Origin: Escherichia coli
GTDB lineage: Bacteria > Pseudomonadota > Gammaproteobacteria > Enterobacterales > Enterobacteriaceae
Assembly (NCBI RefSeq): GCF_044647545.1
Contig: NZ_CP172818.1
DNA length: 64,000 nucleotides
Direction: 5' to 3' (one strand)
A program made the position numbers and the translations under genes. The notes beneath the pieces were generated by a model. The model was not told the origin of the DNA, ran no database searches, and saw only the letters and a list, made by a program, of their open reading frames with translations. Below are positions 5,160 through 12,414 of the stretch, one piece after another (within the stretch, counting starts at the first letter, position 1; every line of letters begins with the position of its first letter).

Positions 5160-5663
5160 ATGACTGAAATGGCTAAAGGAAGCGTGACGCATCAGCGGTT
5201 AATCGCTTTATTATCGCAAGAAGGTGCTAACTTCCGCGTCGTTACCCATGAAGCGGTAGGTAAATGTGAAGCGGTGTCAGAAATTCGTGGCACCGCTTTA
5301 GGCCAGGGGGCTAAGGCACTGGTATGTAAAGTCAAAGGCAATGGCGTAAATCAACATGTTCTGGCGATCCTCGCGGCCGATCAACAGGCCGATCTGAGCC
5401 AACTTGCCAGCCATATAGGCGGATTACGCGCTTCGTTGGCCAGCCCGGCGGAAGTCGATGAACTCACAGGCTGTGTCTTCGGCGCGATCCCCCCTTTCAG
5501 CTTCCATCCAAAACTCAAACTGGTTGCCGACCCCCTACTCTTCGAACGATTTGATGAAATCGCCTTCAATGCAGGCATGCTGGATAAATCCGTTATTTTG
5601 AAAACCGCGGATTATTTGCGCATTGCGCAACCAGAACTGGTCAATTTCCGCCGCACTGCGTAA
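5160..5663 (+). CDS. yeaK: YbaK/ProX-family aminoacyl-tRNA deacylase YeaK
   Basis: 167-aa ORF with GGAG upstream; conserved position after dgcJ. Confidence 0.85.
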   Translation: MTEMAKGSVTHQRLIALLSQEGANFRVVTHEAVGKCEAVSEIRGTALGQGAKALVCKVKGNGVNQHVLAILAADQQADLSQLASHIGGLRASLASPAEVDELTGCVFGAIPPFSFHPKLKLVADPLLFERFDEIAFNAGMLDKSVILKTADYLRIAQPELVNFRRTA

Positions 5664-10988: not shown

Positions 10989-11171
10989 TTACCAACCACA
11001 AACATCATGTTCGTTTTCCGTGTCATAAGAACGCACGGTATTCACCAGATCTTTTATCACTTCAGCCGCCACTTCTGGTACCAGCAAAGTCATCGGCGTC
11101 TCTGTTTCATAATCGACAGAAACGCCATTGCTGTTATTGGTGACGGTCACGGTATACGTTGCTTTGCCCAT
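10989..11171 (-). CDS. yoaG: DUF1869 protein YoaG
   Basis: 60-aa ORF immediately downstream of yeaR on the same strand. Confidence 0.8.
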   Translation of the reverse strand: MGKATYTVTVTNNSNGVSVDYETETPMTLLVPEVAAEVIKDLVNTVRSYDTENEHDVCGW

Positions 11172-11174
11172 GAT

Positions 11175-11534
11175 TCATTTCCCGTTATGAATGACTTTCC
11201 GTTGTTGCGCGCCTTCCATCAGGACTTCAGGAGCAACGAAGAAGTCAATGTTGAAATAAGTGTCGTCAGTCATGGCTTCAATGTTGTGCCACTTTTCTGG
11301 AGGGAACACCGCAAACTGCCCCGCTTCGATAAGGATCACTTGATCAGGCTCTGCACTGTGTTCATCAGCGTAGCCGAGATATTTGACCGCCCCATGCATA
11401 ACGGAAAGGCGTGGGTAAACCCCCGGGCGCGTTCCTTTATCAAGATGACGTTCGAATATTCCGGCAGGCGCAGTTTGTTTATTCCAGAAAGGCGTTGAGC
11501 GCGTATGAATATAATTCTGTGGGATTTGCAGCAT
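11175..11534 (-). CDS. yeaR: DUF1971 protein YeaR
   Basis: 119-aa ORF; first gene of the yeaR-yoaG pair. Confidence 0.8.
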   Translation of the reverse strand: MLQIPQNYIHTRSTPFWNKQTAPAGIFERHLDKGTRPGVYPRLSVMHGAVKYLGYADEHSAEPDQVILIEAGQFAVFPPEKWHNIEAMTDDTYFNIDFFVAPEVLMEGAQQRKVIHNGK

Positions 11535-11706
11535 CCTTTTCCCTCCTTCGGTGAATGCGCTGAAAACGGTTTATTCCAGCCGTTTCAGGGTACGCCTGAT
11601 AATTTGCATTTTAAATACCATTTATTGGTTACTTTTTAGCACCGTATCAGAGAAGAATCAGGGAGGATTACAGATGGGAAGCCCGCGACAACGCGGGCTG
11701 AAAGCA

Positions 11707-12414
<708 letters not shown>

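Follow-up and report, generated by a model that had tools for sequence, protein, structure and literature searches.

The canonical NsrR operators of ytfE (AAGATGCATTTAAAATGCATCTT), hmp and hcp are 11-1-11 inverted repeats with an ATTT-N-AAAT centre, and they overlap the core promoter. The same layout, the same centre and an overlap with the core promoter are found upstream of yeaR, where the proximal half-site also carries the TGCA core of the canonical operators. The distal yeaR half-site is degenerate in comparison, with TGGTA instead of TGCAT, because it also serves as a NarL heptamer. The yeaR site differs further from the canonical operators in its overlap with the -35 element and with an activator site, and in having no ChIP-seq peak in strain CFT073.

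The regulation of yeaR has been described from both sides. The gene is known as NsrR-regulated (PMC5320621, citing Lin et al. 2007), and the locus is under the control of NarL and NsrR (PMC4959519, citing Lin 2007 and Filenko 2007); yeaR is not mentioned in Rodionov 2005. The predicted yeaR NsrR site of CFT073 is listed as AAATGGTATTTAAAATGCAAATT in Table 4 of Mehta et al. 2015 (PMC5320621), and the same 23-mer is present in the DNA studied here. In that study, yeaR was induced 160-fold and yoaG 168-fold in CFT073 under anaerobic nitrate, and the lack of a yeaR peak in NsrR ChIP-seq was viewed by the authors as a probable false negative. On the activation side, yeaR is similar to ogt. Both are NarL-dependent and FNR-independent, and in both a NarL 7-2-7 site adjoins the -35 element at -43.5 within a weak core promoter; ogt requires two NarL sites, whereas yeaR has a single one. 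The Fnr independence of yeaR is described in PMC10853779 and PMC7419079. Of the two promoters, yeaR is the only one described with an overlapping NsrR operator in the literature cited here. The yeaR operator is already known and is not new. It serves as a positive control for the reading of sequence by eye and not as a discovery: the observation of the NsrR element is confirmed, and its interpretation is supported.

The leuE-yeaR interval and its NsrR-type repeat

The window is the whole stretch of Escherichia coli chromosomal DNA that was analysed, 64,000 nucleotides in length. The interval at 11535-11706 (172 bp) is the exact gap between leuE and yeaR, from the yeaR start codon to the leuE stop codon. 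In RefSeq, an identical locus is annotated with yoaG, yeaR, leuE and dmlR as the flanking genes, which all lie on the window's minus strand. The ORF list and this annotation show that the interval and the yeaR/leuE gene assignment of the original prediction were correct. The genes and the Shine-Dalgarno sequence are located as follows.

10989-11171, minus strand: yoaG coding sequence, 60 aa, DUF1869, second gene of the operon (ORF list and RefSeq annotation)
11175-11534, minus strand: yeaR coding sequence, 119 aa, DUF1971, first gene of the operon (ORF list and RefSeq annotation of the identical locus)
11542-11547, minus strand: Shine-Dalgarno sequence AGGAGG, 7 nt 5' of the yeaR ATG at 11534-11532 (read from the sequence)
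11707-12345, minus strand: leuE coding sequence (ORF list)

The K-12 yeaR-yoaG locus has the same gene context as the window, in the order leuE-yeaR-yoaG-yeaQ. The interval was matched in 5417 of 5426 complete E. coli genomes, with 100% identity to several of them. The yeaR promoter region is absent from 9 of the 5426 genomes. Its matches in the collection fall at 5421 places, 2 of which are on plasmid-classed records.

A palindromic position weight matrix (PWM) was built from the 16 ChIP-seq-positive 11-1-11 NsrR sites in Table 4 of Mehta et al. 2015 (PMC5320621), with yeaR excluded from the training set. The motif tested for this class was AAGATGCATTT-N-AAATGCATCTT, and a significant match was found within the interval.

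11601-11623, minus strand: very probable NsrR operator, a 23-bp 11-1-11 imperfect inverted repeat that reads AAATGGTATTTAAAATGCAAATT on the yeaR strand (located by the PWM; the same site as in PMC5320621 Table 4)

The yeaR strand of the operator region reads GCTAAAAAGTAACCAATAAATGGTATTTAAAATGCAAATTATCAGGCGTACCCTGAAACGG, and the two halves of the operator are arranged as AAATGGTATTT-A-AAATGCAAATT. The promoter-proximal half-site (11601-11611) agrees with AAGATGCATTT at 9 of 11 positions and the distal half-site (11613-11623) at 7 of 11. Within the repeat, 8 of the 11 position pairs are self-complementary. The PWM score at 11601-11623 is 20.8 bits, which ranks first among the 63,978 positions of the window. 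The exact tail probability was calculated as 4.8e-8 per position, corresponding to 0.003 expected matches per window and 0.2 per 4.6-Mb genome. The operator score was not reached in any of 200 64-kb sequences simulated with a first-order Markov model (mean maximum 13.7, highest 20.16). A second credible NsrR site was not found by the PWM scan of the 64-kb window, the runner-up at 11.07 bits lying below the simulated mean maximum. The yeaR operator outscores 13 of the 16 training sites by their leave-one-out PWM scores, and its score is within the upper range of the ChIP-verified NsrR sites.

The resemblance to the NsrR inverted-repeat operator, which had been noticed from the letters alone, was thus strongly verified by the PWM scan. 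The sequence quoted for it was a 26-mer, TTTGCATTTTAAATACCATTTATTGG, placed at about 11593-11618. This 26-mer is present once in the window, on the plus strand and inside 11535-11706, and its actual location is 11603-11628, 10 nt away. It does not correspond to the operator unit: it lacks the first 2 nt of the 23-bp repeat and extends 5 nt further into the NarL site, so that part of the NsrR site is joined in it to half of the NarL 7-2-7 site.

Promoter architecture

The site in the cryo-EM complex of NarL with RNA polymerase is identical to TAACCAATAAATGGTA of the window and is centred at -43.5 (PMC10853779). The same source places the yeaR discriminator at -6 to -1 and describes the -35 element as 'intrinsically weak'. 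When a sigma-70 consensus promoter scan was run with a threshold of 9 of 12, nothing was found in 11400-11800. This is expected because the promoter matches at 7 of 12 positions and is activator-dependent. The promoter was therefore placed from the published numbering, which gives the following elements.

11616-11631, minus strand: NarL (NarP) 7-2-7 activator site TAACCAATAAATGGTA, centred at -43.5 (PMC10853779), with a mean conservation of 0.91
11610-11615, minus strand: weak -35 hexamer TTTAAA, 4 of 6 to TTGACA, inside the NsrR operator (from the NarL centre and the discriminator numbering)
11587-11592, minus strand: -10 hexamer TACCCT, 3 of 6 to TATAAT, 17 bp 3' of the -35 hexamer (derived in the same way)
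11580, minus strand: predicted transcription start +1, a G (calculated from the published positions of the NarL centre, -43.5, and of the discriminator, -6 to -1; PMC10853779)

The NarL site consists of two inverted heptamers with 2-bp spacing; it adjoins the -35 hexamer and agrees with TACYYMT-NN-AKRRGTA at 10 of 14 positions. With the NarL centre at -43.5 (PMC10853779), the centre of the NsrR repeat, 11612, is therefore at -32, and the 23-mer spans -43 to -21 and covers the -35 hexamer. The overlap of this 23-mer with the NarL site is 8 bp long (11616-11623) and falls at the promoter-proximal NarL heptamer. Lin, Bledsoe and Stewart 2007 (J Bacteriol 189:7539) reportedly give, in their abstract, mutational evidence for a yeaR NsrR operator centred at -32, in agreement with this placement.

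Other pattern searches were performed on the same interval. The sole result of an exact-seed inverted-repeat search was the leuE hairpin described below; the NsrR repeat was not picked up because it is too imperfect, and the PWM was therefore used. Sites for FNR, CRP and IscR were tried at the element and rejected by pattern match. The best FNR match of the interval (TTGAT-N4-ATCAA) is at 11550-11565, with 4 of 10 specified positions mismatched. The best CRP match (TGTGA-N6-TCACA) is also at 11550-11565 and not at 11601-11623, with 3 of 10 positions mismatched. The IscR-type pattern was checked similarly.

Conservation across genera and rival readings

A YeaR protein scan with one genome per species found 26 full loci, in Escherichia, Citrobacter, Salmonella enterica subsp. 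arizonae and diarizonae, a Raoultella-labelled MAG and Silvania. Together with the window, 27 upstream sequences were compared. The best NsrR PWM match within the 226 nt scanned is at the homologous position in all 27, located 73-84 nt 5' of the ATG with scores of 11.3-24.2 bits. The chance expectation is at most 5e-3 per region and mostly below 4e-4.

In the alignment, the block TAACCAATAAATGGTATTTWAAATGYA and the sequence GCGTAMCCT stand out clearly amid unalignable flanks. The mean identity to the window over the 27 sequences is high at the NarL site (0.91), the NsrR site (0.86) and the -10 hexamer (GCGTAMCCT, 0.90). It is lower in the upstream spacer (0.37), the leader (0.49) and the 3' end of the leuE coding sequence (0.69). 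The block of the NarL and NsrR sites, at 0.86-0.91, is flanked by mean identities of 0.27-0.46 on the upstream side and 0.36-0.57 on the downstream side. Across four genera, conservation within the intergenic region peaks at the NsrR-site block.

From these data, 11601-11623 is very probably the NsrR operator within the sigma-70 promoter of yeaR-yoaG. The basis computed here comprises the motif match and its statistics, the promoter position, the identity with K-12 and the cross-genus conservation; the position of the NarL site and the NsrR regulation of yeaR are taken from the literature. A different reading of the same block is that it holds nothing beyond the -35 hexamer, the NarL 7-2-7 site and an AT-rich spacer, so that the likeness to NsrR sites is incidental and NsrR acts indirectly, if at all. 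The NarL site and the -35 hexamer do account for 11610-11631, and part of the conservation of the distal half is owed to the NarL heptamer and the -35 hexamer rather than to NsrR, because this weak half (7 of 11) overlaps both. However, the -35/-10 spacer at 11601-11609 is conserved at 0.81, where specific bases are needed neither by NarL nor by sigma, and the substitutions in this spacer half-site follow the variants tolerated by NsrR (TGCA, TGTA and TATA). The NsrR motif is AT-rich, as are many promoter regions, but the PWM match still has a P of 8.7e-7 per position when the background is set to 70% A+T. The yeaR peak missing from the CFT073 ChIP-seq data also fits a promoter without a direct NsrR site, while the same paper states that yeaR is regulated by NsrR (PMC5320621).

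The loci with an altered NarL sequence bear on the same question, in that the NsrR palindrome is kept or improved in them. The Silvania locus, with a YeaR protein 72% identical, has a better NsrR palindrome, AAGTCGCATTTTAAATGCATTTT, at 23 bits despite its differing NarL sequence. In three Citrobacter loci (L007, L015 and L024, from C. sedlakii and the C. amalonaticus group), yeaR does not follow leuE and another gene is located upstream. In these, TAACCAAT is changed to TGCCCCTT and the NsrR core is kept. Their NarL sequence, about 85-100 nt 5' of yeaR, is TGCCCCTTTTGGTGTA in place of TAACCAATAAATGGTA; it agrees with the NarL 7-2-7 consensus at 11 of 14 positions and keeps the exact spacing to the NsrR centre. 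The activator site seems to have turned over here without a change of place. With these loci considered, a conserved block made of NarL and promoter elements only is very improbable.

Slightly less probable still is that the AT-rich element is mainly the site of another repressing protein, such as Fis or another nucleoid protein, FNR, CRP or IscR. Squire et al. 2009 (Biochem J 420:249) are said to have found a Fis site overlapping the yeaR NarL site, together with Fis-dependent repression in rich medium. An additional overlapping Fis site is therefore likely real, but Fis binding would add to NsrR and would not replace it. The work of Squire et al. 2009 is cited by PMC7419079. As for FNR, yeaR has been published as Fnr-independent.

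The reading of the element as an NsrR operator is preferred, and the nitrosative-stress control of yeaR-yoaG through NsrR that was originally predicted is supported by the PWM, the placement over the -35 hexamer, the conservation peak and the listing in PMC5320621. The prediction gave the NsrR half of the regulation; the other half, the control by nitrate and nitrite through NarL, was missed.

Proposed regulation, strain variation and hairpins

The mechanism favoured here follows the published model, in which yeaR-yoaG are repressed by NsrR, an NO-sensing iron-sulfur repressor of the Rrf2 family. Without NO, holo-NsrR on the 11-1-11 repeat is predicted to keep sigma region 4 off the -35 hexamer, and it would probably exclude NarL and the alpha-CTD as well. 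NO, for example from nitrite during nitrate respiration, would nitrosylate the cluster and take NsrR off the DNA. Phospho-NarL at -43.5, formed in response to nitrate or nitrite via NarX/NarQ, would then recruit RNA polymerase through the alpha-CTD. Because the two sites share 8 bp, we infer a steric competition of NsrR with NarL or with RNA polymerase and its sigma region 4. Such an element would explain the place of yeaR-yoaG among the genes with the strongest induction by nitrate, nitrite and NO, which extends to urinary-tract infection and to plant surfaces. It would also explain the use of PyeaR as a nitrate/NO biosensor promoter.

In 4787 of 5417 E. coli genomes the 40-mer at 11596-11635, which spans both operators, is unchanged; the adjacent upstream 40-mer at 11636-11675 is identical to the window in only 1132 of 5400. 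The latter stretch, just 5' of the NarL site, is unusually polymorphic: 3271 genomes, including K-12, are 90-95% identical there, and in E. coli E69 (L002) it is almost unalignable. The K-12 promoter is the same as that of the window from 11642 (-62) to the ATG, with no differences in the operators; the 3 differing positions are further 5', at 11643-11671.

One operator variant recurs within the species. It is a T-to-A change at 11608, in the TGCA core of the proximal NsrR half-site (AAAATGCA to AAAAAGCA), seen in E. coli CEC08123 (L030). Its exact 40-mer is found in 295 of the 5417 E. coli genomes, including O157-labelled strains. The change costs 4.5 bits of PWM score (21.0 to 16.5). Other single changes in the operator 40-mer are found in another 335 genomes, among them strain N96 with a G-to-A change at the next base.

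Two hairpins were identified in the interval.

11559-11580, minus strand: 7-bp stem-loop GCUGGAA-UAAACCGU-UUUCAGC, with which the predicted yeaR mRNA begins, dG -8.7 kcal/mol, z = -2.75
11680-11699, minus strand: terminator-like leuE 3' hairpin AGCCCGCG-UUGU-CGCGGGCU, starting 8 nt after the leuE stop codon

When the leaders were folded one by one, hairpins with different stems were found in Citrobacter and Salmonella, starting 0-4 nt from the predicted +1; no such 5' hairpin was found in the Silvania leader. RNAalifold returned no consensus structure for the MAFFT alignment of 23 leaders, because the leader hairpins are out of register in that alignment. The yeaR hairpin may be a 5'-end stabiliser of the mRNA, each z-score being weak on its own.

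Two more speculative extensions of the mechanism can be proposed, which we consider doubtful. Because of the 8 shared bp, the main role of NsrR may be to keep NarL away as an anti-activator, giving a strict AND gate of nitrate/nitrite and NO. The T-to-A variant may loosen the NO control of yeaR to some extent in one lineage of E. coli. In either case, the lineage-variable 5' hairpin might add a control of mRNA stability.

The leuE hairpin is the only exact inverted repeat of the interval. It has a perfect 8-bp GC-rich stem with a dG of -16.4 kcal/mol and z = -4.35. It was not called by the terminator scan because of a weak U-tract, the hairpin being followed by UUCCCAUCUG and not by a U-run. 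Notwithstanding this U-tract, 11680-11699 is probably the leuE terminator, and it would insulate the yeaR promoter from leuE read-through. The stem is kept in Citrobacter and Salmonella with pairing-preserving base changes.
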